Shown here piece by piece: positions 4,177-64,000 of a stretch of DNA of 64,000 bases (positions are counted from its first letter, which is position 1; each line of letters begins with the position of its first letter). A program made the position numbers and the translations under genes. Origin of the DNA: an uncultured virus (IMG/VR IMGVR_UViG_3300009163_000001) (taxonomy: Duplodnaviria; Heunggongvirae; Uroviricota; Caudoviricetes); IMG/VR virus record IMGVR_UViG_3300009163_000001, one strand, 5' to 3'. The notes beneath the pieces were generated by a model. It was not told the DNA's origin. It did not search any database and saw nothing but the letters and a program-made list of their open reading frames with translations.

Positions 4177-4250
4177 GACTAGGTATCCCAACTGGCAGAG
4201 GAAGAAGACTTAAAATCTTTTTGTTGTGGGTTCGACTCCCATCCTAGTCA
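4177..4250 (+). tRNA. tRNA-Leu(TAA), short variable arm
   Basis: Acceptor GACTAGG/CCTAGTC+A; anticodon arm GAAGA-CTTAAAA-TCTTT; T arm GTGGG-TTCGACT-CCCAT. Confidence 0.88.
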
Positions 4251-4258
4251 TTAGAGTT

Positions 4259-4282
4259 CCCAATAGTTGGGGCTATAGATAC
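4259..4282 (+). promoter_or_regulatory. putative phage RNAP promoter
   Basis: CCCAATAGTTGGGGCTATAGATAC; intergenic; recurs at 9712, 17432 and 60033; aligns with T7 TAATACGACTCACTATAG. Confidence 0.8.
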
Positions 4283-48848: not shown

Positions 48849-51800
48849 ATGAGCGAGAAGAATATTGATATTAATGAATTAAACGCACCAGCTGATATTA
48901 GACTTGGTGGTTTATATAATCCAGAGCCAACTCCAAGAGAACCAGAACTTAAGTACAACGCTACAGTACCTTACTATATTGGTAGATCAGTTAACAATAT
49001 TTTGCCATCAATAATGTCTGTGTTAACAGAACCACTTACTGGTGACGGCATAAACCCATATACTGAAGATGCTAATAACGCTAGAATGGGGATTGCTCCA
49101 GATACATTGTTATCTTCAATGTCTAATATAGCTAATTGGAGTAAGAATATAAAGACACAACAAGATCTATACCCATCCTTTACAAGCAGTCCTTCTGATG
49201 CTGCTTTTGATGAACAACTTAGAATTGAAAACATGGTTAATGGTGGAACTACTTCTGGAGCCATTGGTAGATCAGTAGATCAAACAGCACAAAAAAGATT
49301 AATTGCTGGTTATTATCTTAATCCATATTTTAAAATTAATGCAAACCAACAATTAATTGAGAATCGAGATGGGTTTGAACAAAGATATGACGAGTATGCT
49401 GCTAGTGTTAAATTAACAAATGATGATAGATTCCTTAAAGAAATGAACGCAACAGATTCTAAGTTAGCAAGCACGAATGTAAAAGATGCTAAGTTACCAG
49501 AACTAAAATTACTTAGTCAGAAAGAGTTATATGAGGGGCTTAAGAATTTTAATGAAACTGGAGCATGGGGTAGGTATGTTGCAAACCTTTCAGCAGAAGA
49601 TGGTTTGTTTTCTCTTGGTTGGGTAGTCAAAGATATTTTAACTGGCTTTGGAATGGCTAATCCACTTAATAAAGTTGAAGGTGGTTTTGAATTAGCAACA
49701 TATCAAAACCCGTGGAATATTATGGAGACTCCAGTTGTCTCACTTGGTAAAGATGTTATAGACTATGTAGCTAAAGAAGATCCAAACTTTAACGGACCAG
49801 AGTGGTTCTCACAACTAGAACTTCCAGTAGAAGTTCGACACCAAATGTTATTAAATGGTATTGATACTTCGTCTTTTATTGGATCTCGTGGTAAAAATGA
49901 AGCTTTATTTACACTACAAAACTTAATGTTTACTACAACTCTTAGAGATAAGTATGAAAACTTTTTAAAGAAGAATGAATTTTGGAATAGTAAAACAGGA
50001 TCACTAATAAAAATTGGTGTGTCTTTGCCCAACATGATTGCATCTGATCAAGATACTGTACTAGCTGTTGGAACATCCTTATTAAGTGCTGGTGTATCAT
50101 TGGTATCTAAAGGAACAGCGATGACTTTAGGTGCAATGAAGCTTACTGGAGCAGCAGCTAATACAATGAAAACCACTGGAGTAGTACTCAGTGGTCTTGG
50201 AACAGCCACAGCTTTATCTACTGGTGGTATCCCTAGATTTTTAAAGTATGCAAATTGGGGTACAAAACTTGGCTATAGTATTGGTACTGGTTCTTTAATT
50301 ATGGTTGCAAGAAACTTTAAAGATCAACAAAACAAAATAGCCTTTACTGTTGCTGGTTTAGAAGAGCAAGGTAAATATTCTTATGACTTATCGGAAGCAG
50401 CAACATCCGCATTTGAAGGTGCTATATTTGGTGGTGTAATGCATGGTGTGCATGAGGGTGCTGGTTATTTAAATAATAAAATTAGAATTGAATTAAACAA
50501 TGGTATTGATTATAACAGTTATACCATTAATGGACCAAACACCAAAATGAGACCAGCGGTTACTGATCTTTATTTCGGAGAGAAATTTAAAGAAGCTCAG
50601 TTATTAGATAGACCTGCTGGTAAATACCCACCACTACTTCCTTTCCTCAAAGCTAAGGTAAGTAAAGAAGAAAGACGACAATATGATCAAGTTGTCCTTG
50701 GTTTAACACCAGAACGACAACTCAATTTAGATAGTTTAACTGATACTTTGATTGCTGAAAGTAATAGTAAAGTACCAGAACCAACACCACTTAAAGAAGT
50801 TATGATTAATGGTGTAAGACATTTGTTTGAGGCAAATGAGGTAACACCAGTATCTAGTACTGAACACGCACAACATCTTCAAGAACCAGCAACCATTAAA
50901 AGTAGATATGGTAATTATTATTTTAGAGATGGTGATACTAATATGTATATAGAAACACCAGAAGGAGTTGTAAAAACAAATAATGACAATGTTGGTTTTG
51001 CAGAATATCAAGCAAACAAACCAATAGAACAAGAGCTTCCAGTAACACCACTAGCAGAAGGTGAGAAGTTAGCTGTAGCCAAGGACTCCTTCAGTGATCG
51101 CTCTACACTAGTAGAAGCCACCGACCTAAGGGAAGTACCAGAATCTGGTATCTTCTCAAGAGTTGAGGGTGAAGCCCCAGTAGCACATGCTGTGAGGTTA
51201 CTTAATGCAGACCAAATTGGTGGTGTATTAGATATTCATCCACTTACAGAAGGTTTTGGAGAAGGTAGACTTGAAGCAACTAAACAATTATCTGCTTACA
51301 AAAAAGCATTACGGATCTTAGAGTTTATTAATGAGAATAGAAATGAATCTCTGTCGGATCAACTTGAGTTATTTGGTGTGGGTCTTGACCCAAAGATAGC
51401 AGAAAAATTACCACAATTAATTAAAGAACTTAATAGTGTTATTAAACAAGTTGAAGAACACACAGCTGATCAAGTAGCTAAAGACTGGTCTCCAGAAGTT
51501 TCTAGTTCTATGACCAAGAATCAAAGAGTAACCTTTCAAGAAGATTTAAGTTATCAAAGAGCTAGGTTAGAATCTGGAGTAGAACCAAAACAAATCTATA
51601 AAGCATTAGATCAAGCTGTTGAGGATGGGACATTTACAAAAAACTATAGAGACGCTATTGTAAAAGTTCTTACAACCCTTGGTGAGTTACCTAAAGAAGA
51701 AGTACCTGAGGTAACTAGCGCAAAACCAACAGTTAAAAATCAAGTTCGTAGAAGACTTGCTAAGATTGAAACTAGTAGTAATGATAGGGTTATTAGACAA

Positions 51801-54800
51801 ACTACTCAACGATTTAAAAGTGTGTTTAATGATAAACAACAAGCTAAAGCAAGGGCTGCATATAAAAAACCATATGGATCTAATAAAGCAAAAAACGGAT
51901 TTATTAAAAACTTTAGTAAGCGATTAGCAAAAAATGGTGTTTCAATTGACACAAGAATTGAAGCTGTTAAATTATTAAGTGCTAGTTTAGCTAACTTAAA
52001 AGTAGGTCCAGCCCAATTACTTATGTGGGTGGATAAAATAAAAACAATAGATGTTAATCCAGATGGATATCGAGGTCAAGCTACAGCAAGTATTGTTCCA
52101 AAAATTGATATTAAACTAGGTAAAAACTATGCTTCTGAGTTAAGCGTAAACCAAGCACCAGAAGTAGTTAAGTTAACTTTACATGAACTTGGTCATATTT
52201 ATTCATATTTATTTTCTAGTGTAGAAGAACAAAAATTAAACGATCTATATACTAAATATGTTGATGTATATACTGTTAAAAAATATATGCTTAATGAGAA
52301 TGCTTTGTTTGGAAACGCATATCATTTAACAAAACAAAATAAATACAACATATCAAACCTAAGTGGAAGTATATTAAGTGATAACTTTTCTTATGATTTT
52401 AAGGGTGTTGATGAATTTTTTGCAAATATGTTTCAGAGTACACTTTATAATGAAACAATAAATGCTTTAAAAACAACACCAAGAAATAAACCTGTAAGTC
52501 TGTGGCTTATAGACTCATTAGTTCATTTTAAAAATACATGGAACTCTATTAAAAATATAGTTAGTGATGATAATTTAAATGGATTAACAAAAGGAATTTT
52601 TGAACTAATTAAAAAAATAGATAAACAAACTTATTTAACTGGTGAAGAAGCTCTAATTAGAGAAAGAGTATCAGCTAAAATTCAATTTCGTCTTGCTCAA
52701 AACTCTTCTTTAGTAAATTTAACAGACCTTCCAAATTTTAATGGTTTATTATCATATAGAAATTATAATGAACAGCTTGGTACTAGATTATTAAATATGT
52801 TATATGATCCACAAAGCGAAAAGTTATTATCTAGTTTAGTAGATATGGAAAATCATACAAGCGAACAAGCCCGAAGTCTTGCACTTGATACTATAAGAGG
52901 AAGAATAGAAAAAGAAATTAATAATCTTGTTGGTGTTGTGGAGGGTGGAGAAGCACATGCAGATCCATTTACTGAAATATTTAGAATGACTAGTGGTTTT
53001 GAGGTAGATACGAACACTGTAATTTGGAAACAACTTGCTTATATGCTTGATTCAGACGGTAGTATTCGTGATGTATTAAAACAACCTACTGAATTTATTA
53101 TATCAGATAATATGGAATCATTTCCTGGTTCTAAAACAGAACCTAAAACAACCATAAATGAATATGATTTAGAATCAAGATTGGTTGTTGCGTCTATATT
53201 TATGCCTCATAGAATATCAGAAATATTACAAACTTGGCAACGATCAGCACATGATACTAATATTATTGGAATGGGATTAGAAACTAATGTATCTAATTTA
53301 AATGTGATGTCAAATACTGCAAAGATTGTAGTTAGATATTTAGACATTAGAAAATCTGTTGATGATTATAAAGCAACAGCTTTTGCTTATGCTGTACCCG
53401 ATTTATTTAAGGATAACAAATCAAACAGAGCATTCTATACAGAGTTTAGTAGTATTGCTGATTTTGTAAATATGTTACACTCAAATGAAAATGCTGAGGT
53501 TAATATAAACACATTGCAAGATAGATTAATTTATTTATCAAAAGAAAAGTATGCAGTTGGAGATCCAATTGCTGGTAGTTATCTCCAACAATTTTTATTT
53601 TTAGATGATATTCTAGAACATTTAAATCAAGAGTTTGGTATTCGATTAAAAGAAAAACAAAACATATTTACACCAGAATTAGATCGTGGGGCTAAAGAAG
53701 TTATTAATGATTTAATAACAAGTCCATTTATACCAAACAATAGAAAATATGAAATTATTAACCTGTCTGTTCGTGGCGGTAAAACTAAACATGGTTTTAA
53801 TTCTTTCTTTGAAGTTGCAGCAGATCTTGATAGAAATGATAATCTTAGATCTATGGTTTATGGTTTTCTTGATAAACTAAATTTAGATGGTGTTACATTT
53901 GACACTCGTTTAAAAGAAGCTTCACTACGCTTATTAGATACTAGTGATATAGATAAAAAGGTTATTGAAACAGAAGATTTATTTACACTAGCTAGATTAA
54001 TTGCTAATGAAATTCTTGGACCAGATAAGGTAGAAATTGTTAAACAAAATATTACTACTAGAAAAAAACTACTCAAGGCAAAACCAGAGTTAGTAGAAAA
54101 AATTAAAACAAAGCAACAAGAAGTAGCTGTTGCTAAAATTAAAGCTGCTTCAGTTAAAGTTAAAACAGAACCAATAAATAATAACGAAGTATCTGAGTTA
54201 CTTGCTGACGCAGCCAGTGAACCACTAACGGCAGATGAAACCGCAGTCACAACAAATAACTGGAAAACAAATCCAAAAACAACTACTACTGATGTAGTGA
54301 GTGGGGAAATTGGATTAACTAAAGCTAAAAACTTTAGTTATTTATCTGATGGTCCTATGTTAACTGTGGTTGATATAAGCTTGTTAGTTAGTACAAAAGG
54401 TAATATTCTTCGTAAAGTATTATTTTCAGCTCTTGGAAAAATGAGAGGAAAGCTTTCAATTGAGGGTAAAGAAGATATGCTAAGTGAGTTAGGATTAGCA
54501 ATTCAATATGAACCAACTACTAAAAAAGCTTATGAAACTATTCTTGCTGATGGAAAAGATGTTAAACCTAGAATTGTAGGTCTATCTAAAAAAGTTTTAT
54601 TTAATGCTATTCAAACTAAAATTAGAAACGAATCTATTTTATCATCAACTGGTGAATCACAAAAGAAAGAAAATAGTATTATTGGTCCTGATGGAGAATC
54701 AATGGACTTTGCTCAAGTTGTTAATAATAAAAGAAGAACAACCGAAAGAACGCTAAATGAAGCAATGATGGCTTTAAACCAAGTAGGATTAACAAAAGAT

Positions 54801-57800
54801 ACAATAGATAAATTTGAAACATTTTCTAGATTACGATTAACTCCTGGCTCTACTGAAAAAAGCGTAGCTGAAATAATGGGTATGACTGAAGACGCTATGA
54901 ATAAACTTGTACATAGAGTTAAAGAAGCTTTTAAAAAAAAACAAATAACTATAGATATTTTAGATGGTAAGATAACTGATATTAACCCACAACAATTAGC
55001 TAGTCGAATGGCTAGAATAGAACTTGAAAATTCTACAACAACAGAATTAGCTAACCCAATTGAGGCTGCAAAAAAAGCAATTAAACCACTTAGAGAAAGA
55101 ATGGCTATTGCAACTAGAAGAGAAGCAACAGCAGAAATATTTAAAGATGCTGTTGTTGATACTAGCACTGAACCAAGTGTTGCTATGCCTATTGTTAATA
55201 AGTCAAAAACAAAAGAAACTATGTATGCTACTACACTAGATGGTACTAGTGAATCTGTACCAAATGGGACTGTATTAGTAGCACACGAAATTGCTACAAC
55301 AATTGCAGAATCAAAACAAGCTGAGATAACAACTCAAGTTGTTGTTGATATAACTAAACCAACTATTGAATTAGTAGCTGGTAATGGACTTGTAGATACA
55401 CTTAAAAATACACCAGCATCTGTATTTGAAGAAGTTGGTCTTGAAAAAGAAGCACTCATTGAAACTTTGGTTGCTGTAAATAATCCAGAAGAAGTATTAA
55501 TGAATATTTTAAAAGAAAATGAAGTACCACCAGCAACAATTACTATTACTAATAAAGCAAAAAAGACAAAGGCTATTATTGTTTTAGAACCAGAGGTTGC
55601 AAAGGTAACTGGTGTTATCGACAATACTGTTGAATCTCCAACTGTTAGAAATGTTGGAACAGAACCAGCTAAAGTAGATCCAAGTATTGTTATTGAATCT
55701 ACTGTTAAGAACCCTGAGAAAGAAGTTATTATTTTTGATAAGTCTACTGGTGAGTCTCCTGATTTAAAACCAATGATTGTTACTGGCACTAGTGATAGAG
55801 TTGAACTATCTCCTATTGATAAGTTTGATAGTGAAGTAATGGCTGGTAAGGAAATGCTTAGACTTAATGGACAAGATCCAAAGTTTATAAAGTATTTCCT
55901 ATTGAAGTTTAACAAACTATCTTCTGCTCTAGTTAAGAATATTGGAGTTAAGATTGATGCTATACCAAAAGAATTTGAAAACTTATTGGCTGAGATACAA
56001 TCTTATTATCTTGCTATTAGTGAGCATAATAGAAGTAACTTTCCAGATTATGTATTTAATAGTCTTAATGATAAATTTTGGAAAGAGTTTGATAAACAAG
56101 TTGTTGCTGATCTTGCCGCTAGAGCTACACCACTTTCTGAAATGAAACCAAAAAAACTTGGTGAAATTATTAAAGCAGCATCTGACAAAGTAAATGAGTT
56201 TATAGCTTATCATAATAAAGTAGAAATAGGCAGTGTAAAACCTGAGCGTGTTTCTCTTTGGGCTGAATTCTTACCACCTATTTCTCCAGATGACTTTATC
56301 TTAAGTACACTACAAACCGCAAAGGATGTAAATGAAAGTACCTTTATAACTGAAGTAAGACTAAGACCAAAGAGTGAAGGTGAGCGGTTATTTAAAGCAG
56401 CAAAGCAAAAAAGAATAACAGCAAAAACTATTGTTGAAGATTTCAAACTAACTCCGTTAACAGAACCAATTGAATCTGCTAAGCCAACTGAGGTTCCTAA
56501 GCCAACCGAAGCTGCTAAGCCAACCGAAGCTGCTAAGCCAACCGAAGCTGCTAAGCCAACCGAAGCTGCTAAGCCAGTAAAAGAAATAGATACAGTTGAT
56601 ACTATTACTGAATCTCTTGCTGATGATTTAAAGAAAAGAATGGAAGATAAAAAGAATAGTAAAGATCGTAATGGCTTCCTACGAAATTGGTGGATAAAGT
56701 ATTCAGATATGCATACAATGCATCACACATCTCTTAATTGGTGGTCTAGATTTTGGAGAGGATCAGCTAAAGAAATTACTGCTGATGCTAATATGATCTC
56801 TAGGTTTATGAGATTATCAAGTGGGCTTATTGCAAACAGGTCTGCCGAAGGAAAAACTATTCGTAGTTTAAATAATGTAATGCGGCTTATATCTTCATTC
56901 GCAGAAAATGGAAAGTTAATGTCTCATCAATTTGTCAAAGTTGGAATAGAAGCGTTTAAAACATTTGAAGCTTGTGCTTCTCAAAACTTTAGAGAAATCA
57001 TTCCATTGTACGACGCTCAAACAAAGTTTAATAACGCTGTTGGTCATATGCAAATGGCTAGAGATCTACAGTGGAACATGATTAAAGCTAAGGCAAAGAC
57101 AAAGGGTGTCTTAGTTGATAGCGAACTAGAGAAAATTATATTAACTCATAAACCTAAGGCAACAAAAGAATTTATTAAGACAGTTATTCAAAGAGCAAAG
57201 GAACTACAGCAAGTAGATATTAATGATAATAAATTATTGATTGATCTAGAAGTTAAAACTAAATGGGGTAGAATGGTTGACCGTAATGGAAAACAAATGG
57301 ACCCAAATGAATACCATAGTATGACGGTTGATTCTAATTTAGTTGGAACTCAAAATAGAACTACTATATTAGAAGCTATGGCAGATGTCCGTAGTCAAAC
57401 ATTGTTATCGGAAGATACACTAGATGGTAATATTATGTTTGGTATGGGTTGGTTAACTGAAGGTACTAAGAAGAATAGAACCATTTGGTCAAGAGATAAT
57501 AGATCAGGTGTCCAAATAAGTGACATGGCTGATTCTCCTTTTGATAGAACAACTTTAAAAATGTTGGAAGCAAAAGCAAAACTAGATGGAGAAAATCGGT
57601 ACGCCCCAGGAACAGACTTGGAAAAGATTTGGCAACTGAACGACAAGAACAATCATAAATATTTTTCATACATTGATCCAGCTACTTTAGAAGTTGTGAT
57701 TTGTTCTATGCCAGAAGTAAAAGCTGAGTTAAGTGCTGGAGATTTACTGAAGTATAACGAAACGGTTACTGGTAGCTTAGATCATTTATCTCCATTTTGG

Positions 57801-60020
57801 TTGGATCGCTTTAGAAACAAATCAGTACTAGAAGTAACTATGGAAGAACTATTGCAGTACAAAACAAGAACTGGTAGTTATTCGCCGCATAACACCGCAT
57901 CAGATACTGGTAAGGCTGTAATAGGATTGTTTGGTAGGGGTAATACATATGAGGGATTTGCTGTTAGAAATCTTTCTATTGATGAAGTCCTTAACAGTAA
58001 AGTTCTTAAGGATATCTTTAGGTATGAATACTTTTCAACAAAGAAAAACTTTAGACAGAGCAGAGGATTTGAATTATTAGTACAACGAGAAATTGATAGA
58101 CAACTTGGTGTTACTGGATTTAGGGCATCGGAATTCTTTGAGTCTGGTAGACAAATAGCTTTAGAGGGTGCTGGGTCAAACGATAAGATGGTTGACCATA
58201 TCAACGGAGGCTTTAGTAGAATCTCTGATGACTACAATTCGTATGCTGGTAATCTTCCATCCATCAACAGTAAATATAATAATGTAGATCAGGTTGTATC
58301 TAATATTGGTACAAACATTATTAAGATTGCTTCAGCACCAAAGTGGGCAATCAGAAGTTTAGCTGAGCCTATGGTATTATTAACAGATGAATTAGTTGGT
58401 AGAAATTTTGGTGATAGTATCAATGGAGTATTTAATATATTTAAACAATATATTATGCGTGATAAAAAATCATTTGAAAAAAATTCAGTTAATAATTTAA
58501 TCTTTGGAATGAGAGAAGTTATGAACCATCAAGAAAGATTCTTATCAGAAGCCGATGATATTCTTTCTTCTTCTCTTGGCAGAAATAGATGGGTAGATAG
58601 ATTACTAAGAACAAAAGAAAATGGAACTGTTATTGAAAAAGCTTTTGATATTGGTGGAAACTTTGGAGTAGAGGCTGGAGGCAGCAGGGAATTAAGCACA
58701 GCTGCTAGAGGTATTGCTATTGTAAAGTTTGTAAGAGAGTTTGCGCTTACAATTGACAAGGCTCAAGAACTTTTAGTTCTTATGCAAAAACCAGAGAATA
58801 GAAAAATAGCTGCTGAGTTGAATCAACTATCCAGATCAAAAACATCTGGAAGTGTACAATTAAGCAAACACTTTAAGACACTTGCAAGAGAAGCTAGGTT
58901 TGGTGGTGACTGGGCAACAGCTGCTCAGTATGTCAGATTTAATTTACTTAATAAGGAAACACTGGATGCTATTGCATTTGCATTTAAAGATATGGGTGTT
59001 CGAGATGGTCGGGTTGATATGGCTAAGTTTAGAGAGTGGACACAAGCATATACAACAAATGGTATTGGTCCAATCTCTAAAGAAGTTATGCACCAAGCCT
59101 ACCACGATTTTGCATATGCAATAGAAACTAGAGTAGGAACGGATGGTATGATCTCTGAAGCAAGAGGCTTAAATAGAGATCTGAGTATTGCTAGTAGGAC
59201 ACCACTTGGTCGGTTTATGAAAAGCTTACTACAATGGTCATCTTCGTACTCAAGTAATGTATTACAGAATGGTGGTTTAATGACACCAGCTGGAGTTATT
59301 CTTAAAGCCATTATTATTTATAATGTATATACATACCTAACTGATTTATTAGTAGAGTATGCAAGAGGTAGAGATCCAAAAGATATTGTGAAGGAACTAC
59401 AAGATCCTAAGACATATGTATTTAGAATGGCATCAGAAACGCCAGTACTAGGTAGGTATCAATCCTTGTTATCAGAAGGTCTTGCAATGTCATCAGCATT
59501 AACTGGTGGCAAGTTTCAATCGTTTGGCGTATCAACCAATGTTCCAGCTGCAAGCGTTGCTAATGCATTTATTAGGAAATGGGGCAAGTCTGTTAAAGCT
59601 TTAGCAACTGAAAAGAATCTAACTGCTGGAGAAGTAGCTGGTCATATTGGTAATATCACAGGAGTTAACAGTTTAGTCAATGGAAGTCCAATTGGTGTTG
59701 GTGCTTCTACTATGCAACAGATGGGTATTATCCAACAGCATGATGCTCTTAGCGATTATCTTAAGATTGCTAGAGGAAACCCAGCATCCCTAAATAAGTA
59801 TGGTGGCGTACAACCAGCAAGCAATACTAACTATGACTATAGTCCTAGCTCTGAAACTCAATACGAACTTAAGAGAAGAAAGACTTATGAACAGATGAAG
59901 CAAATAGAGAAGCTTAATAAGATCATGGAGAAACCCAAGTCATTAACACCCATGATGATTAATATCAAGGGTGTCTCCTATGATCTAGCCAAGAAGCTGA
60001 ATGAGATGAACCAGCAATAA
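48849..60020 (+). CDS. giant internal virion/ejection protein (3723 aa, gp16 position), multi-domain
   Basis: Last gene of the internal virion cluster; HELGH...DEFFA zincin motif; sigma-like HTH; AKPTEA repeat. Confidence 0.75.
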   Translation: MSEKNIDINELNAPADIRLGGLYNPEPTPREPELKYNATVPYYIGRSVNNILPSIMSVLTEPLTGDGINPYTEDANNARMGIAPDTLLSSMSNIANWSKNIKTQQDLYPSFTSSPSDAAFDEQLRIENMVNGGTTSGAIGRSVDQTAQKRLIAGYYLNPYFKINANQQLIENRDGFEQRYDEYAASVKLTNDDRFLKEMNATDSKLASTNVKDAKLPELKLLSQKELYEGLKNFNETGAWGRYVANLSAEDGLFSLGWVVKDILTGFGMANPLNKVEGGFELATYQNPWNIMETPVVSLGKDVIDYVAKEDPNFNGPEWFSQLELPVEVRHQMLLNGIDTSSFIGSRGKNEALFTLQNLMFTTTLRDKYENFLKKNEFWNSKTGSLIKIGVSLPNMIASDQDTVLAVGTSLLSAGVSLVSKGTAMTLGAMKLTGAAANTMKTTGVVLSGLGTATALSTGGIPRFLKYANWGTKLGYSIGTGSLIMVARNFKDQQNKIAFTVAGLEEQGKYSYDLSEAATSAFEGAIFGGVMHGVHEGAGYLNNKIRIELNNGIDYNSYTINGPNTKMRPAVTDLYFGEKFKEAQLLDRPAGKYPPLLPFLKAKVSKEERRQYDQVVLGLTPERQLNLDSLTDTLIAESNSKVPEPTPLKEVMINGVRHLFEANEVTPVSSTEHAQHLQEPATIKSRYGNYYFRDGDTNMYIETPEGVVKTNNDNVGFAEYQANKPIEQELPVTPLAEGEKLAVAKDSFSDRSTLVEATDLREVPESGIFSRVEGEAPVAHAVRLLNADQIGGVLDIHPLTEGFGEGRLEATKQLSAYKKALRILEFINENRNESLSDQLELFGVGLDPKIAEKLPQLIKELNSVIKQVEEHTADQVAKDWSPEVSSSMTKNQRVTFQEDLSYQRARLESGVEPKQIYKALDQAVEDGTFTKNYRDAIVKVLTTLGELPKEEVPEVTSAKPTVKNQVRRRLAKIETSSNDRVIRQTTQRFKSVFNDKQQAKARAAYKKPYGSNKAKNGFIKNFSKRLAKNGVSIDTRIEAVKLLSASLANLKVGPAQLLMWVDKIKTIDVNPDGYRGQATASIVPKIDIKLGKNYASELSVNQAPEVVKLTLHELGHIYSYLFSSVEEQKLNDLYTKYVDVYTVKKYMLNENALFGNAYHLTKQNKYNISNLSGSILSDNFSYDFKGVDEFFANMFQSTLYNETINALKTTPRNKPVSLWLIDSLVHFKNTWNSIKNIVSDDNLNGLTKGIFELIKKIDKQTYLTGEEALIRERVSAKIQFRLAQNSSLVNLTDLPNFNGLLSYRNYNEQLGTRLLNMLYDPQSEKLLSSLVDMENHTSEQARSLALDTIRGRIEKEINNLVGVVEGGEAHADPFTEIFRMTSGFEVDTNTVIWKQLAYMLDSDGSIRDVLKQPTEFIISDNMESFPGSKTEPKTTINEYDLESRLVVASIFMPHRISEILQTWQRSAHDTNIIGMGLETNVSNLNVMSNTAKIVVRYLDIRKSVDDYKATAFAYAVPDLFKDNKSNRAFYTEFSSIADFVNMLHSNENAEVNINTLQDRLIYLSKEKYAVGDPIAGSYLQQFLFLDDILEHLNQEFGIRLKEKQNIFTPELDRGAKEVINDLITSPFIPNNRKYEIINLSVRGGKTKHGFNSFFEVAADLDRNDNLRSMVYGFLDKLNLDGVTFDTRLKEASLRLLDTSDIDKKVIETEDLFTLARLIANEILGPDKVEIVKQNITTRKKLLKAKPELVEKIKTKQQEVAVAKIKAASVKVKTEPINNNEVSELLADAASEPLTADETAVTTNNWKTNPKTTTTDVVSGEIGLTKAKNFSYLSDGPMLTVVDISLLVSTKGNILRKVLFSALGKMRGKLSIEGKEDMLSELGLAIQYEPTTKKAYETILADGKDVKPRIVGLSKKVLFNAIQTKIRNESILSSTGESQKKENSIIGPDGESMDFAQVVNNKRRTTERTLNEAMMALNQVGLTKDTIDKFETFSRLRLTPGSTEKSVAEIMGMTEDAMNKLVHRVKEAFKKKQITIDILDGKITDINPQQLASRMARIELENSTTTELANPIEAAKKAIKPLRERMAIATRREATAEIFKDAVVDTSTEPSVAMPIVNKSKTKETMYATTLDGTSESVPNGTVLVAHEIATTIAESKQAEITTQVVVDITKPTIELVAGNGLVDTLKNTPASVFEEVGLEKEALIETLVAVNNPEEVLMNILKENEVPPATITITNKAKKTKAIIVLEPEVAKVTGVIDNTVESPTVRNVGTEPAKVDPSIVIESTVKNPEKEVIIFDKSTGESPDLKPMIVTGTSDRVELSPIDKFDSEVMAGKEMLRLNGQDPKFIKYFLLKFNKLSSALVKNIGVKIDAIPKEFENLLAEIQSYYLAISEHNRSNFPDYVFNSLNDKFWKEFDKQVVADLAARATPLSEMKPKKLGEIIKAASDKVNEFIAYHNKVEIGSVKPERVSLWAEFLPPISPDDFILSTLQTAKDVNESTFITEVRLRPKSEGERLFKAAKQKRITAKTIVEDFKLTPLTEPIESAKPTEVPKPTEAAKPTEAAKPTEAAKPTEAAKPVKEIDTVDTITESLADDLKKRMEDKKNSKDRNGFLRNWWIKYSDMHTMHHTSLNWWSRFWRGSAKEITADANMISRFMRLSSGLIANRSAEGKTIRSLNNVMRLISSFAENGKLMSHQFVKVGIEAFKTFEACASQNFREIIPLYDAQTKFNNAVGHMQMARDLQWNMIKAKAKTKGVLVDSELEKIILTHKPKATKEFIKTVIQRAKELQQVDINDNKLLIDLEVKTKWGRMVDRNGKQMDPNEYHSMTVDSNLVGTQNRTTILEAMADVRSQTLLSEDTLDGNIMFGMGWLTEGTKKNRTIWSRDNRSGVQISDMADSPFDRTTLKMLEAKAKLDGENRYAPGTDLEKIWQLNDKNNHKYFSYIDPATLEVVICSMPEVKAELSAGDLLKYNETVTGSLDHLSPFWLDRFRNKSVLEVTMEELLQYKTRTGSYSPHNTASDTGKAVIGLFGRGNTYEGFAVRNLSIDEVLNSKVLKDIFRYEYFSTKKNFRQSRGFELLVQREIDRQLGVTGFRASEFFESGRQIALEGAGSNDKMVDHINGGFSRISDDYNSYAGNLPSINSKYNNVDQVVSNIGTNIIKIASAPKWAIRSLAEPMVLLTDELVGRNFGDSINGVFNIFKQYIMRDKKSFEKNSVNNLIFGMREVMNHQERFLSEADDILSSSLGRNRWVDRLLRTKENGTVIEKAFDIGGNFGVEAGGSRELSTAARGIAIVKFVREFALTIDKAQELLVLMQKPENRKIAAELNQLSRSKTSGSVQLSKHFKTLAREARFGGDWATAAQYVRFNLLNKETLDAIAFAFKDMGVRDGRVDMAKFREWTQAYTTNGIGPISKEVMHQAYHDFAYAIETRVGTDGMISEARGLNRDLSIASRTPLGRFMKSLLQWSSSYSSNVLQNGGLMTPAGVILKAIIIYNVYTYLTDLLVEYARGRDPKDIVKELQDPKTYVFRMASETPVLGRYQSLLSEGLAMSSALTGGKFQSFGVSTNVPAASVANAFIRKWGKSVKALATEKNLTAGEVAGHIGNITGVNSLVNGSPIGVGASTMQQMGIIQQHDALSDYLKIARGNPASLNKYGGVQPASNTNYDYSPSSETQYELKRRKTYEQMKQIEKLNKIMEKPKSLTPMMINIKGVSYDLAKKLNEMNQQ
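56478..56576 (+). repeat. 18-bp in-frame tandem repeat
   Basis: CTAAGCCAACCGAAGCTG four times (56497-56568) with degenerate flanking copies; encodes (KPTEAA)n. Confidence 0.95.
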
Positions 60021-60032
60021 GAGTGTGTATTA

Positions 60033-60054
60033 CCAATAGTTGGGGCTATAGATA
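60033..60054 (+). promoter_or_regulatory. putative phage RNAP promoter at the right end (phiOR-like)
   Basis: CCAATAGTTGGGGCTATAGATA just after the last structural gene, facing non-coding DNA. Confidence 0.8.
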
Positions 60055-60600
60055 ATACCTAAGGGTATACCTTAGGGATAGTCGAGATCTAAAGATCTCC
60101 TATAGGTTATGTATTTAATTATATTAATACTAATCTATAGGAGATCTTAGTCCGAAGTACAGTTAAGTCTATGGGTTACTTAGGATACCTTAGGGGTCGT
60201 AGTTAGGTACTACTCCCTGTCGAGATCCTTGGTCCCATCCCTGTCGATCTCCGACGGTTCTAGGGGGTTCGGTGCTATACACATCAACAACAACCTGTAT
60301 ACAAATCCAGGATATCTATGCATGTTCCTTGGTTTAACATGGGTGACCGCCCTGTCCATAATATACTGTGAGTTACTTTCAGGATACGCAAGTATTGCAC
60401 AATACATAGACCCTGTGTACCGTTGGGTCTCCCGACACTTATTACGACAATGTGTCGGGACAGCTAGTACGCCATTGGTGACCTAGTAACCCCCAGCCTG
60501 TACCCTAGTACGCCATTGGTGGCTCTTTAGTAAATCGACTTAGGGGTCGAGAATTTATAGACCACCTCTATCCCATGTTGTACTCCCGCCGTCCCCCCAT
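60055..60600. other. probable genome-end / concatemer-junction region
   Basis: Non-coding; 18-bp hairpin 60092-60148; direct repeats TCCCTGTCGA (60214, 60238) and CTAGTACGCCATTGGTG (60464, 60505); lies between the last late and first early gene. Confidence 0.55.
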
Positions 60601-60655
60601 AGCCCGATAACCACGGCGATTGCACATAGTCCCATAAGTCACTAATTTAATATCC

Positions 60656-61124
60656 TTGTGGCGGTTTATTCCCTTGAATGATACTTAAGTACTCGGGGAT
60701 ACTAAATACGAAACAAGTGACCATAGAAGTAAATTGTTTCCGCTGATTACATGGTTGAGTTCAATCAACCGTTGCGCCTTGAGCAGACTTATGCTCTCTA
60801 AGGGCTACCCTTCCTTGTTGAAGTTGGGGTAACAACGGACTCGGGATGGTTCAATCGGTTGCTCGGACTGAGCGTAACGGCGTATGCCACCAACTCCGCA
60901 GAGATTCTCTGTAGTGGAGTGATTCATTCAAACACATGAATCGTAATAATTCTAGTTGTTCCTAGAATTGTCTCTTATGCTTGCCTTACGGCTATCCGCT
61001 GAGAGTATAAAGAAACGCTTGGCAACGATTCTGCTTTTTTCCAAGAGCATAGTCCGTTGCTAGGCGTGATTTCCACTAAGATTAGTGGCATTCACGCCGT
61101 TCCCTACAAGGTGTAGGGGATAGC
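60656..61124 (+). ncRNA. candidate large structured RNA / early leader
   Basis: No ORF; more than ten helices with G-U pairs and nested long-range pairings. Confidence 0.55.
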
Positions 61125-61149
61125 AATAATACCTAACATGGAGATACTA

Positions 61150-61458
61150 ATGAAACTTTCAAGTCAAGTTTGGGCTGAATTATCGTACAACGATCAATCG
61201 AATGTGATTATCGACCTGTACCAAGTATGTTTGAAGACTGGTTACTGTTCCAACAAGGGTCGTAAGCCTGTAGAAGACCTTCAACTCGTGATTCAGCATG
61301 TATTTGGAATCAAGTTGGATACTGCGGCATTCGCATTGCGTTGCAAAGGTTTATTGAACAAGGGCGATAGCAATTCTCAGAACAAGGCATTGCGTCAACA
61401 ACAGATGTTGAAGACTCTTGCTGAACTCTTTGCCGCCGCTAAGCCTGTTACTGCCTGA
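61150..61458 (+). CDS. hypothetical early protein
   Basis: CCTAACATGGAG SD module followed by ATG 61150. Confidence 0.75.
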   Translation: MKLSSQVWAELSYNDQSNVIIDLYQVCLKTGYCSNKGRKPVEDLQLVIQHVFGIKLDTAAFALRCKGLLNKGDSNSQNKALRQQQMLKTLAELFAAAKPVTA

Positions 61459-61462
61459 TAAG

Positions 61463-61546
61463 GTAACGATTGCCTACCTCGCCCCATAGGGAAACCTATG
61501 GGGCTTTATAGGTTACCGTTGGTAACTATTAACCCCTAACATGGAG
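61463..61546 (+). repeat. intergenic module copy 1 (GAAA hairpin plus 40-bp repeat with SD)
   Basis: GCCCCATAGG-GAAA-CCTATGGGGC, then 61507-61546, identical to 61854-61893. Confidence 0.9.
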
Positions 61547-61553
61547 AGTAACT

Positions 61554-61808
61554 ATGACTATGCGAAACTTAACAGTAGTGCGCCAAGTAACTAAGTCTGC
61601 TAATGTTCTATCGGTTGGATTCATTCAAGCGAATGATGCCGCAATGGCTGAGATTGCTACGCTCAAAGAGCAGGTACTCGGTCTTACTCGTACGATTGAA
61701 GCAATGAAACTCGCTGAGAGTAATCGCCTAGACTCGGAGTTCCGTTCTACTCAACATAAACTTGAGGCAAGTAATGCAATGCGATTAGCAATGATTGCCT
61801 CACTCTGA
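61554..61808 (+). CDS. hypothetical coiled-coil early protein
   Basis: GGAG SD from the repeat module. Confidence 0.75.
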   Translation: MTMRNLTVVRQVTKSANVLSVGFIQANDAAMAEIATLKEQVLGLTRTIEAMKLAESNRLDSEFRSTQHKLEASNAMRLAMIASL

Positions 61809-61810
61809 GA

Positions 61811-61893
61811 GTAACGATACTCTATACTCCAAGTGTGGGAAACCACACTTGGCTATAGGTTACCGTTGGTAACTATTAACCCCTAACATGGAG
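61811..61893 (+). repeat. intergenic module copy 2
   Basis: CCAAGTGTGG-GAAA-CCACACTTGG, then the same 40-bp sequence. Confidence 0.9.
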
Positions 61894-61899
61894 TCTATC

Positions 61900-62268
61900 G
61901 TGAGTGATAAGATGATTAAAGATGGAGAGGAAGGTAGATTTGTATCTACATTCTGGCTTGACCAAGCCACCAATAGTTTTAACTTGGTTAAGGGAATGCT
62001 TGAAGAAAATATTGCGTCAGTAAAGTCTTTGCGTCATAGTGTGAGTATTCGTGATACTACTATAGATGGACTCTACAAACTTACTGAAAGTAAAGATGTT
62101 CTAATTAAAGAGAAAGATGCTAGGATTGAATTGCGTAATGAAACTATTATGGATTTACGCAAGACAGTACAAGAGCAAGTCGATGCTCTTGAAGAGCAGT
62201 CTACTATTATTAAAGACCTTAATAGGGTAATCGCTGAGTACCGTAACCTAACAGGAGAAACCAAATGA
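61900..62268 (+). CDS. coiled-coil early protein (paralog family)
   Basis: GTG start 6 nt after GGAG; DLRK..QEQ..A...IKDL motif. Confidence 0.7.
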   Translation: MSDKMIKDGEEGRFVSTFWLDQATNSFNLVKGMLEENIASVKSLRHSVSIRDTTIDGLYKLTESKDVLIKEKDARIELRNETIMDLRKTVQEQVDALEEQSTIIKDLNRVIAEYRNLTGETK

Positions 62269-62579
62269 GTGCTATTGATAGTAAGATTATTAGGTTGTGT
62301 AATAGGCTTGATGTTAAGGATGCTATCATTACATTGTTAGATTCATCCCTTAAAGAGAGGGATGATAGAGTGTCTATCCTTCGCAATATCATTAGTGATA
62401 ATGATAAGACTATTGTGCGTTATACTATGTACGAAGTTCACTTAAAGAAAGAATTGGATATCAAAGATACTATAATCTCAGACTTGCGGAAGGGTATACA
62501 AGAGCAAGCCAATGCTATTAAAGATTTGCTTAACTTGCTTGCTGATTGTCGTACTGAGTTAACAAGAGGTACACGATGA
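62265..62579 (+). CDS. coiled-coil early protein (paralog family)
   Basis: AGGAG SD, ATGA coupling; DLRKGIQEQANAIKDL. Confidence 0.75.
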   Translation: MSAIDSKIIRLCNRLDVKDAIITLLDSSLKERDDRVSILRNIISDNDKTIVRYTMYEVHLKKELDIKDTIISDLRKGIQEQANAIKDLLNLLADCRTELTRGTR

Positions 62580-62791
62580 AAGATAGTAAAGATAGAGAAC
62601 TGATTAGGCATAAAGGTATTCCTGGGTACTTTGTACCTCGGGGACTATATGAACTCATGGAGTTTGGGATTGAAGCGGCACTAGCAGATATTGATAGTAA
62701 GGGTACTAAGATTAAAGACCTTACTAAAGAGATAGAGAGATTGACTAGTGCTATTAGAGAGATTCATCCAAAGTGGAATACAATGGATTAA
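62576..62791 (+). CDS. hypothetical early protein (partial paralog)
   Basis: GAGGT SD, ATGA coupling; IKDL..EI.RLT. Confidence 0.7.
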   Translation: MKDSKDRELIRHKGIPGYFVPRGLYELMEFGIEAALADIDSKGTKIKDLTKEIERLTSAIREIHPKWNTMD

Positions 62792-63215
62792 GGGTTCGCC
62801 CTTAAGTACCTTCGGGTACTTAGTAGGTATCACTAGGTAATGCCTAGTGTATCCTATAGAACACAGTGCTTCATAGGTCAGATAAAGAATGACTATGGTA
62901 CTGTGTTCTATAGGATAAGTAGTACAAATACCCTAGCACCACAGTAAGTCTATGGGTATTACCCTATGAGTCCTTGCATCATGGTACTATAGTCGAAAGA
63001 CTATGGTACTATTTATCGGGTTATGTGGGTATATTAGTATCCATATACAGGAGTATTAGATGTAAACTAATACTCAAAGGTACTGTGACTAATATCATAG
63101 TATGACATCGTATGCGATTAGCATATAAGTTATAGAGTCTTTGACTCTAATGAAGTGGGTAGTTACATACCACACAACTATGGTACTACAGTCGAAAGAC
63201 TATAGTATTATTTAT
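62788..63215 (+). other. non-coding hairpin array
   Basis: About ten consecutive hairpins, including TTCG and GAAA tetraloops, a 20-bp stem and a 36-nt direct repeat (62981, 63180). Confidence 0.65.
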
Positions 63216-63275
63216 GACACCTGTAGTGTATCGTATACACCTGTAGTGTCTGTTTCTTTCAGAGGATATACTGCT

Positions 63276-63398
63276 ATGCATGATCTTGTATTCACTATAC
63301 AGAAAGTTACTACTGTGATGGGAGTATGTTGTGGATTGTTTGGTATGCTTATGATTCTTATTGGTACTCTTATGGCATTCATTGGAGAAACACTATGA
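63276..63398 (+). CDS. small membrane protein
   Basis: GAGG SD; hydrophobic; ATGA coupling to the next gene. Confidence 0.6.
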   Translation: MHDLVFTIQKVTTVMGVCCGLFGMLMILIGTLMAFIGETL

Positions 63399-63685
63399 TA
63401 ACTCAGTACCATAGTAATGGATTCAGCATTAACTTTGTCAACGGCTATAGTATATCTGTGATATGGAACACAGGTTCTTATAGTGACAATAGGTCTAACT
63501 TTTTACCTACCTCGTCAACTGTTGAAGTAGGTATCTTTGCTACTGCTGATGGAACGAGTAAGTTTATACGACCTGATTATCGGTTTGAACCTGAAGAATC
63601 TAATGATGTTATTCCGTTTGTTGAGGTGGAGTTACTCGCTAAATTGATTGCGTGGACTAGTGGGTTACGGAGTGTAACACCATGA
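63395..63685 (+). CDS. conserved hypothetical phage protein
   Basis: GGAG SD; F.NGYSISV....GSY...VEV pattern. Confidence 0.7.
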   Translation: MITQYHSNGFSINFVNGYSISVIWNTGSYSDNRSNFLPTSSTVEVGIFATADGTSKFIRPDYRFEPEESNDVIPFVEVELLAKLIAWTSGLRSVTP

Positions 63686-64000
63686 GTAGTGTACCATTGC
63701 ATAAGAAGGGTAACACTAAGGTACTAAAGGTTAGTGATGGCTATGATGTTACTCTATACGGACATCTTATAGTACAAGTGCGTGGTAACCTTATCCACAT
63801 GAATACTTGTGGCTATAGTACGGCTACCACTAAACAGCGTATGAACATGGTACTCGCTATTGAAGGGATCAACATTCGTGTTGGTTCTGTTAAGGGTAGG
63901 TGGTACTGTGGTAACAATCCGTTCTGTCATCAACTCAATACATATTACTATGGCGTACATAATAATAACTTGTATTGTACTATCAATAAGGATAACGCAT
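63682..64000 (+). CDS. 3'-truncated hypothetical phage protein
   Basis: ATGA-coupled; open to the window end; VTLYGH.I...GYSTATTKQRMN pattern. Confidence 0.7.
   Translation, partial: MSSVPLHKKGNTKVLKVSDGYDVTLYGHLIVQVRGNLIHMNTCGYSTATTKQRMNMVLAIEGINIRVGSVKGRWYCGNNPFCHQLNTYYYGVHNNNLYCTINKDNA

Follow-up and report, generated by a model that had tools for sequence, protein, structure and literature searches.

The non-coding stretch at positions 60656–61124 of the DNA analysed here, which comes from an uncultured virus (IMG/VR record IMGVR_UViG_3300009163_000001) and is called the window over its full length of 64,000 nucleotides (nt), is very probably a transcribed RNA region. It lies in a gap (60021–61137) preceded by the last late gene and followed by a series of small genes with GGAG ribosome sites. 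A first-pass annotation, made from the letters of the window, had described it as a non-coding RNA, folded and encoded on the + strand, that precedes the first small gene (gene 1), and this description was borne out by contigs from RNA libraries, by comparison with a related contig and by folding. The RNA appears to be about 320–400 bases long and is predicted to fold, from about 60704 to about 61101, in two domains. As to its role, we tentatively prefer to see in it a 5' leader that heads the leftmost transcription unit of the phage and is processed to a stable form, comparable to the leader of phage T7 with its processing site R0.3.

RNA Contigs from Environmental Libraries

Part of 60021–61600 is contained in 24 sequencing runs, six of which are RNA libraries. 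Three RNA runs, from three studies, and one DNA run were mapped on 58000–64000, and depth is given as the k-mer depth of assembled contigs:

60709–61021, X2 (RNA), depth 30.8; other phage pieces of this run 2–3.9
61104–61476, X2 (RNA), piece over gene 1, depth 8
60706–60933, X20 (RNA), depth 9.4; the sole X20 piece across 58000–64000
60704–60985, X21 (RNA), depth 30.1
Pieces on the stretch, X4 (DNA), depth 2.8–5.3; not above X4 elsewhere

The presence of the stretch at the RNA level is thus attested by contigs from all three studies with a common 5' edge, and the RNA contigs on the stretch have no listed loose ends. The three starts fall within six bases, a hint that the 5' end of the RNA is near 60704. 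The first-pass annotation had let the element begin at 60656; since the RNA-library contigs begin at 60704–60709, the bases 60656–60703 look like promoter or upstream DNA. A second 5' end near 61104–61107 is hinted at by the gene-1 RNA contigs, which start at 61104 (X2) and 61107 (X21), while an X4 DNA contig spans 60997–61267 uninterrupted. The 3' end of the RNA could reach about 61101. Two further features of the contigs were not used as evidence: X2 has no contig over 61022–61103 or over genes 2 and 3, and the X21 contig stops at 60985 beside known variant sites.

Conservation of the RNA Core

A single relative covers the stretch, the 3,760-nt metagenome contig L003, and in this comparison the RNA region proved more conserved than the surrounding genes. 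Between L003 and the window, 24 of the 422 positions of 60704–61125 are changed. None of these changes lies in 60704–60767 (0/64), whereas a variable arm at 60768–60838 holds 18 in 71 positions; in 60839–61149, six of 311 positions differ. Outside the 71-nt arm, the RNA is changed at 6 of 375 positions (98.4% identity). The corresponding counts are 54 of 309 bases for gene 1 (29 of 103 third codon positions), 96 of 1606 for the end of the preceding giant gene (59 of 535) and 13 of 255 for gene 2 (10 of 85). Third codon positions of the neighbouring genes differ by 11–28%, and the RNA core evolves about 7 to 17 times more slowly than these. A third strain, in X21, shows 4 differences in 282 nt on the RNA vs 31 in 221 nt on gene 1.

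The six changes of L003 outside the arm disrupt no predicted helix (helices are numbered as in the feature list below), and one further change was seen in other runs:

G60943A, L003, unpaired, in a linker
C60996A, L003, unpaired
T60957G, L003, in a hairpin loop
T60987A, L003, in a hairpin loop
A60966G, L003, U-A to U-G
T60993G, L003, stem lengthened
T60920C, X21 and X4, one end pair broken

The claim that the stretch is free of genes also held, as neither strand has an open reading frame (ORF) of more than 40 amino acids (aa) overlapping 60656–61124. The longest one has 40 aa, and the stretch failed the test for a protein-coding gene, open frames not being kept in the relatives: the TTG start of a 35-aa ORF (60956–61063) is removed by T60957G in L003, and a 32-aa ORF (60734–60832) crosses the variable arm, where 18 of 71 columns change.

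Because the sequence is nearly frozen in loops as well as in stems, a specific binding partner for the RNA seems likely. This conservation is also a ground for a different interpretation, which we regard as possible but lean against, in which a trans-acting stable RNA of about 320–400 nt binds a host or phage factor (for example a nuclease, a defence sensor or an RNA-binding protein) in the manner of a decoy, sponge or scaffold, and gene 1 merely shares its promoter. Loops and linkers are frozen, with the counts given above against 5–18% change in the flanking genes, and no other part of the locus is as conserved in the runs compared; the multi-domain build of the RNA, with one free-running peripheral arm, recalls large functional RNAs, and its depth in X2 is 30.8 vs 8 on the gene-1 piece. 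Contig depth, however, cannot rank expression, no terminator or mapped 3' end delimits a separate gene, and the analysis turned up neither a partner nor complementarity to a target nor a known motif. The lineage is also narrow: among 5.8 billion proteins, the giant protein has only four relatives (57–90% identity) and gene 2 has two close ones. If this interpretation were true, an RNA that binds and disarms one such factor of the host would explain a frozen sequence beside fast-evolving genes. That it would moreover represent a new class of large phage trans-acting RNA, about 400 nt long, two-domain, made in bulk from the leading end of the genome and active without being translated, is slightly more doubtful still. 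As a separate candidate, a Csr-type sponge was rejected on reading the sequence, in which few GGA motifs lie in loops or single-stranded parts.

Predicted Fold

The first-pass annotation had described the stretch as densely folded, and the comparison with shuffled sequence agrees. On the + strand, its minimum free energy (MFE) is −164.9 kcal/mol, vs a mean of −128.4 kcal/mol for 100 dinucleotide shuffles (z −5.84), none of which equals it. When the window was tiled (200 tiles, each 320 nt long and compared with 15 shuffles; mean z −1.36, standard deviation 1.69), the most extreme of the 200 tiles was 60801–61120, in the 3' half of the stretch (z −8.2); a tile on the span of the RNA contigs, 60704–61023, gave z −4.2 (40 shuffles).

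All 13 helices listed in that annotation are found in the sequence where it had placed them; the arm strings of 11 were confirmed by script and those of TATTCCCTTGA/TCGGGGATA and TATGCTT/GAGTATA by reading the sequence. Two of the 13 fail as parts of the fold. The helix GTGGCG(60658)/TGCCAC(60885), said to close the first domain, has an ensemble probability of 0.0 even when the upstream part is folded, its end pair is lost in L003 (G60658A), and with an RNA start near 60704 it cannot belong to the RNA; its 3' arm pairs instead with 61085–61101 (15 base pairs (bp), probability 0.81–0.96). The same 15-bp helix, 60876–60890/61085–61101, outcompetes CCACTAA/TTAGTGG, whose probability is 0.05. The predicted architecture comprises a 5' domain, made of P1 and the P2 multiloop, and a 3' domain closed by P4 and containing the hairpins P5–P9:

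60710–60740, + strand, P1, hairpin GAAACAA/TTGTTTC; probability 0.97 in the window and 0.99 in L003 (fold of 60704–61125); invariant in L003
60742–60859, + strand, P2 domain, GCTGATT/AATCGGT closing a multiloop with P2a, the variable arm and P2c; probability of the closing helix 0.27–0.82 by the range folded
60753–60770, + strand, P2a, GGTTGA/TCAACC; probability 0.95–0.99
60768–60838, + strand, hypervariable three-way-junction arm, closing stem CCGTTG/CAACGG plus two hairpins; from folding and the L003 comparison
60837–60852, + strand, P2c, within the P2 multiloop
60861–60873, + strand, P3, hairpin GCTC-GGACT-GAGC; probability 0.63–0.96; invariant in L003
60876–60890, + strand, 5' strand of P4, AACGGCGTATGCCAC; pairs with 61085–61101 in 15 bp with a 2-nt bulge; probability 0.81–0.96 in both sequences
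60893–60920, + strand, P5, hairpin; probability 0.27–0.97
60921–60942, + strand, P6, hairpin; probability 0.99
60947–60970, + strand, P7, hairpin; probability 0.94–0.99
60972–61005, + strand, P8, hairpin; probability 0.33–0.94
61015–61067, + strand, P9, long hairpin of 23 bp: a 13-bp lower stem ACGCTTGGCAACG/CGTTGCTAGGCGT, three pairs and a 7-bp upper stem; probability 0.93–0.95; invariant in L003
61085–61101, + strand, 3' strand of P4, GTGGCAT-TC-ACGCCGTT; long-range helix closing the 3' domain
61100–61120, + strand, P11, hairpin TTCCCTACA-AGG-TGTAGGGGA; probability 0.77–0.82; heads the RNA-library contigs over gene 1

P4 does not vary in L003, which makes a covariation test impossible for it; most helices likewise never vary between the two sequences and are neither supported nor contradicted. 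The variable arm is different. Folded alone, the arms of the window and of L003 form an identical three-way junction (the closing stem plus two hairpins), which is kept through three compensated pairs (T60773A with A60834T, C60778T with G60803A, and A60782G with T60795C) and one wobble change (C60784T, giving U-G). When the closing stem is imposed on the full RNA, the cost is 2.0–2.6 kcal/mol, and both sequences take on one common 5' domain. Among 3000 arms with 18 random substitutions, 4.3% were as stable as the L003 arm and 0.9% kept its shape too; with random bases at the observed positions, the value was 3.0%. Covariation between two sequences is no more than suggestive, and the compensated pairs together with the U-G changes point to selection on the folded RNA rather than only on the act of transcription. 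The earlier argument from many G-T pairs is modestly supported: G-U pairs make up 16 of the 140 consensus pairs, and the one-sided changes C60784T and A60966G give U-G on the + strand and an A-C mismatch on the other.

These changes also bear on the idea, in our judgement quite unlikely, that the stretch works as DNA: signals used in replication, packaging, DNA entry or the binding of proteins would sit at the genome end, the hairpins would be DNA inverted repeats and the RNA incidental read-through. The stretch does lie within a 1.1-kilobase (kb) junction that must hold the genome ends, the two strands fold about equally well by z, and the rest of the gap is 93.5–95.9% identical to L003 and rich in repeats. 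Against this stand the two one-sided U-G changes, which would be A-C mismatches in duplex cruciforms as well as on the other strand, and the RNA contigs, which start sharply at 60704–60709 with a depth far above the flanks while DNA depth is flat. In addition, conservation is clearly lower 5' of 60704 than in the RNA core.

Candidate Promoters

A relaxed promoter scan pointed to one region directly before the RNA:

60674–60703, + strand, candidate start region, in which neither promoter is more than predicted

It contains a weak sigma-70-like site, TTGAAT-18 nt-GATACT, with 8 of 12 matches and a predicted start at about 60710. L003 differs at 60678 and 60691 in this region. At a threshold of 9/12, the promoter scan gave only one + strand site, 60334–60362 (10/12), which lies 340 nt upstream, where RNA contigs have a depth of 2–3. 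No tandem strong host-type promoters of the A1-A3 type were found, the relaxed scan adding only the one 8/12 site.

The sequence GGGGATACTAA-ATACGAA before the RNA resembles the core of a phage-polymerase promoter, GGGGCTATAG-ATACGA, and would predict a start at about 60705. Elsewhere, the + strand of the window carries six copies of GTTGGGGCTATAGATA (at 4266, 9720, 15426, 17439, 42227 and 60039), three exact and three with 1–3 changes, and CCAAT-like bases precede most of them. By analogy with the promoters of T7, T3 and SP6, to which we liken them, they are probably promoters of the phage's own T7-type polymerase. The copy at 60039 stands directly after the last gene, like T7 phiOR. This leads to another possibility, an unlikely one, in which the RNA would be a phiOL-like transcript made by the phage polymerase from a diverged promoter at 60695–60705, the equivalent of phiOL at the left end of T7; it would be a middle or late RNA with a part in replication or concatemer processing (as primer, R-loop or pause) and not in gene expression. 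The start predicted from GGGGATACTAA-ATACGAA falls inside the range of the contig starts, 60704–60709, and high abundance would fit a phage-polymerase transcript. However, this site and GTTGGGGCTATAGATA have in common GGGG and ATACGA, with a match at only 4 of the 9 other upstream positions and a spacing that is off by one base; the motif ATCTGTT, the class II pause motif of T7, is absent from the gap; and the compensated pairs and U-G changes indicate selection on the folded RNA. Hairpin promoters of the N4 type were also considered and rejected: the 7–9-bp stems with 3-nt loops before genes 1–3 lie inside the RNA contig starting at 61104, not upstream of it.

A Proposed Processed Leader of the First Unit

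Scanning for terminators and reading the sequence revealed no terminator between the RNA and gene 1, so that the two would form one transcript unless a second start exists. The elements downstream are:

61150–61458, + strand, gene 1, 102 aa, no known family, GGAG at 61140–61143
61481–61509, + strand, 10-bp G+C-rich hairpin with a GAAA loop, then TTTAT; read from the sequence, below the terminator-scan threshold

The hairpin at 61481–61509 is, from its make-up, the probable end of the unit of RNA plus gene 1; in L003, its stem sequence is different and its pairing is kept.

The processed-leader reading would work as follows. The bases from about 60704 to about 61101 would be transcribed on the + strand as the untranslated head of this unit, ending at 61481–61509, and folding, taking place as the RNA is made, would protect this long untranslated stretch against Rho and nucleases. 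The folded part would then be cut from the gene-1 message by an RNase III-type endonuclease, in or next to P9. A T7-type leader is expected to have an irregular helix of at least about 20 bp just 5' of the first gene, and P9, with 23 predicted pairs, is such a helix; RNase III needs about two helical turns, a size that these pairs match, and P9 is accordingly a candidate processing site. The gene-1 message would then begin at about 61102–61107 with P11, and the folded fragment would persist, its dense pairing shielding it against nucleases, which fits the contig pattern. The starting polymerase and the cis role of the RNA are steps that we infer. In T7-type genomes, the genome ends and the early control region sit at the position that matches the gap, and the earlier proposal that the RNA would be among the first made on infection is plausible on a T7-like gene order.

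Several points weigh against this reading. The leftmost position of the unit itself depends on the analogy with T7 gene order. The minus strand of 60656–61124 folds nearly as well as the + strand (z −5.62), so that the fold by itself cannot assign the strand; with one relative covering the stretch, the formal count of pairs in two sequences, reached by 115 of 500 shuffles, has no power. Contig depth is a poor measure of expression, since a conserved stretch may pool the reads of several strains; contigs give neither strand nor true ends; and X2 holds low-depth late-gene pieces, a sign of some phage DNA or background RNA in that library. There is no convincing promoter, the start predicted from the sigma-70-like site lying 1–6 nt 3' of the contig starts. 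Cleavage at P9 is what we infer from the modelled fold. Finally, a role as a shield needs no frozen loops or linkers, and a purely cis-acting leader leaves their conservation unexplained.

The genes that follow offer a further possibility, a very unlikely one, namely that the RNA acts in cis like put and modifies the host polymerase to read through early-gene hairpins. It lies directly behind the presumed start of the first unit, its strong conservation fits a polymerase-binding RNA, and hairpins do follow genes 1 and 2. However, neither hairpin passes the terminator scan, and a U-rich tail (TTTAT) is present only after that of gene 1; put, as generally described, has only about one fifth of the length of the element; and the latter's boxA-like TGCTCTCTAA lies in the stem of the variable arm and is changed in L003. 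As a boxA in its own right, TGCTCTCTAA at 60791, compared with the general boxA consensus, was rejected: it is paired in the stem of hairpin A of the arm, and L003 has TGCCCTCTAA there.

The small genes themselves are poorly characterized. For gene 1, no match was found in PHROG (ORF from 61138) or in Pfam (from 61150), and none of ten early proteins matched a Pfam family above the curated cut-off. The likely start of gene 1 is ATG 61150 rather than the listed ATG 61138, and that of gene 3 is likely GTG 61900 rather than the listed ATG 61888, each 12 nt after the listed one and behind GGAG; both listed ATGs belong to CATGGAG. An exact 40-nt repeat, TATAGGTTACCGTTGGTAACTATTAACCCCTAACATGGAG, is present at 61507–61546 and 61854–61893, before genes 2 and 3; each copy follows a 10-bp hairpin with a GAAA loop, includes a stem of 7 bp whose loop has 3 nt, and is unchanged in L003. 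A comparable hairpin (P11) precedes gene 1, followed by the same CCTAACATGGAG.

The Phage and Its Relatives

Judged by its genes, the source is a distant, uncultivated T7-like podophage from a lake, with a genome of about 66 kb. It is called distant because its single-subunit RNA polymerase is only 27% identical to that of the nearest GenBank phage. The + strand carries every long ORF of the window, with these assignments (Pfam and PHROGs, except for the last):

5673–8168, + strand, T7-type single-subunit RNA polymerase
In the window, + strand, T7-type primase-helicase
In the window, + strand, family A DNA polymerase
In the window, + strand, class II ribonucleotide reductase
In the window, + strand, T7-type portal, scaffold, capsid, nozzle and large terminase
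In the window, + strand, internal virion protein with a lysozyme domain
48849–60020, + strand, last late gene, 3723-aa giant virion protein

The gene of the giant protein occupies the place of the T7 internal virion protein gp16, and the protein has no match in Pfam, PHROG or Protein Data Bank (PDB) sequence searches. L002, a metagenome contig 66,145 nt long, matches the window exactly across all 7,987 bases compared (55531–63517); by arithmetic on its coordinates, about 2.1 kb between the end and the start of the window would be missing from the latter.

The gap and its surroundings have further features. The G+C maximum of the window, 0.444, falls in the 1-kb bin 60001–61000. At 60092–60148, 40 nt 3' of the promoter-like site at 60039, two 18-bp arms, 94% complementary, form an inverted repeat around an A+T-rich loop of 21 nt, a possible late terminator or site of end processing; the tile containing it has a folding z of −7.4. 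The upstream half of the gap also holds a 9-bp hairpin at 60431–60461 and, in 60300–60650, a 17-nt sequence, CTAGTACGCCATTGGTG, that recurs exactly as a direct repeat (60464 and 60505), as well as short repeats of the CCTTAGGG type, which we take to resemble those near T7 ends. Compared with the window, L003 (region 1900–2250) carries 31 inserted nt at about 60337, which duplicate ATATCTATACATG, and lacks 12 nt at about 60157–60168. The second strongest folding tile, 62721–63040 (z −7.5), belongs to a wider ORF-poor region, about 62792–63325, with a perfect 18-bp inverted repeat (62850–62867/62900–62917) and four GA(A/T)(A/T)GACTATGGTACT-like repeats; this region could be a second non-coding element or an origin.

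Searches for known RNAs agree with the first-pass annotation, which had not recognised a tmRNA, RNase P, 6S, intron or ribozyme: no Rfam 15 family matches inside the stretch at the gathering score or at E≤10. Over the whole window, gathering scores gave only three tRNA genes, all in the early/middle region (2642–2715, 2721–2794 and 4177–4250); at E≤10, five weak matches were found in 60000–61600, none within 60656–61124, and ARAGORN found no tRNA or tmRNA gene in 60000–61300. Searches for homologous DNA were similarly sparse. In its distant mode, blastn with 60021–61137 found no match in 50,697 phage records; tblastn with the last 999 aa of the giant protein gave no match either. Scans of IMG/VR with gene 1, the C-terminus of the giant protein and two alignments (A1 and A2) gave only one record, L001, which ends inside the giant gene, and exact patterns of 27 nt of the RNA and of 24 nt of the 40-nt repeat 3' of gene 1 had no match there. 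The nearest virus record compared, G001, lacks the stretch. The metagenome scan gave L002 and L003, and the genome scan a 2861-nt contig, L004, that contains only the first 209 nt of the gap. L004 is 87% identical to the end of the giant gene and is binned in a metagenome-assembled genome (MAG) of Bacteroidota; none of 401 genomes of that phylum has a copy of the RNA. A Bacteroidota host, as the bin would imply, is argued against by the strong GGAG ribosome sites of the phage genes, such sites being rare in Bacteroidota. A full-text literature search gave no description of the RNA.

Significance and Comparison with Known Systems

Candidate structured RNAs have been predicted in IMG/VR viral contigs and assembled into a catalogue; they include conserved, folded, intergenic phage RNAs, some of them directly upstream of a gene, as here (PMC10690425). 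The present RNA differs in that two exact patterns, one from the RNA and one from the repeat 3' of gene 1, have no match in IMG/VR, where the only related record ends in the giant gene.

Little is known of functions that need no protein at the onset of phage infection, and the RNA is a concrete candidate for one: it belongs to no catalogued family, is conserved above every neighbouring gene and is represented in environmental RNA libraries from three studies. Should it be a processed leader only, the T7 scheme of a leader with a processing hairpin would extend to a distant lineage of lake phages, with the added lesson that strong selection may act on leaders of large size and two domains. Acting in trans, it would instead count as a new RNA effector of phages, directly testable because it is short enough for synthesis, probing and pull-downs.

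ROOL and GOLLD are large structured RNAs linked to phages and prophages and are present in Rfam. Like them, the RNA is phage-borne and without an assigned function, with many helices in several hundred nt. Unlike them, it has no Rfam 15 match and is attached to a downstream gene instead of standing free near tRNAs. The put RNA of HK022 brings about processive antitermination by RNA alone, with two stem-loops in about 70 nt. The likeness is that of a folded RNA that comes first from an early promoter, ahead of genes punctuated by hairpins, and needs no phage protein; here, in contrast, at least 10 helices extend over about 400 nt, and the downstream hairpins are weak terminators at best.

In T7, according to what Dunn and Studier are said to have described, promoters A1-A3 and an untranslated leader precede gene 0.3, with the RNase III site R0.3 before it, and the cut-off pieces accumulate as small 'initiator' RNAs. 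The lake phage would share with this arrangement a gene-free stretch of about 1 kb at its presumed left end, read in the direction of the first gene, together with an extended, irregular hairpin just before that gene (here the predicted P9) and an upstream RNA fragment that appears separately in RNA data. It differs in that no tandem strong host promoters were detected (the best nearby site has 8/12 matches), in that a two-domain fold of about 400 nt with a long-range helix takes the place of a single processing hairpin, and in that RNase III would be the predicted agent of a cut. Moreover, the RNA is far more conserved than the adjacent genes, and the stretch has no sequence similarity to any of the 50,697 phage records. 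The RNA belongs to a new family, without an Rfam match, of a kind that, on the reading preferred here, is already known, the folded early leader of a T7-group phage; for such a leader, its size, its two-domain build and its degree of conservation are unusual.

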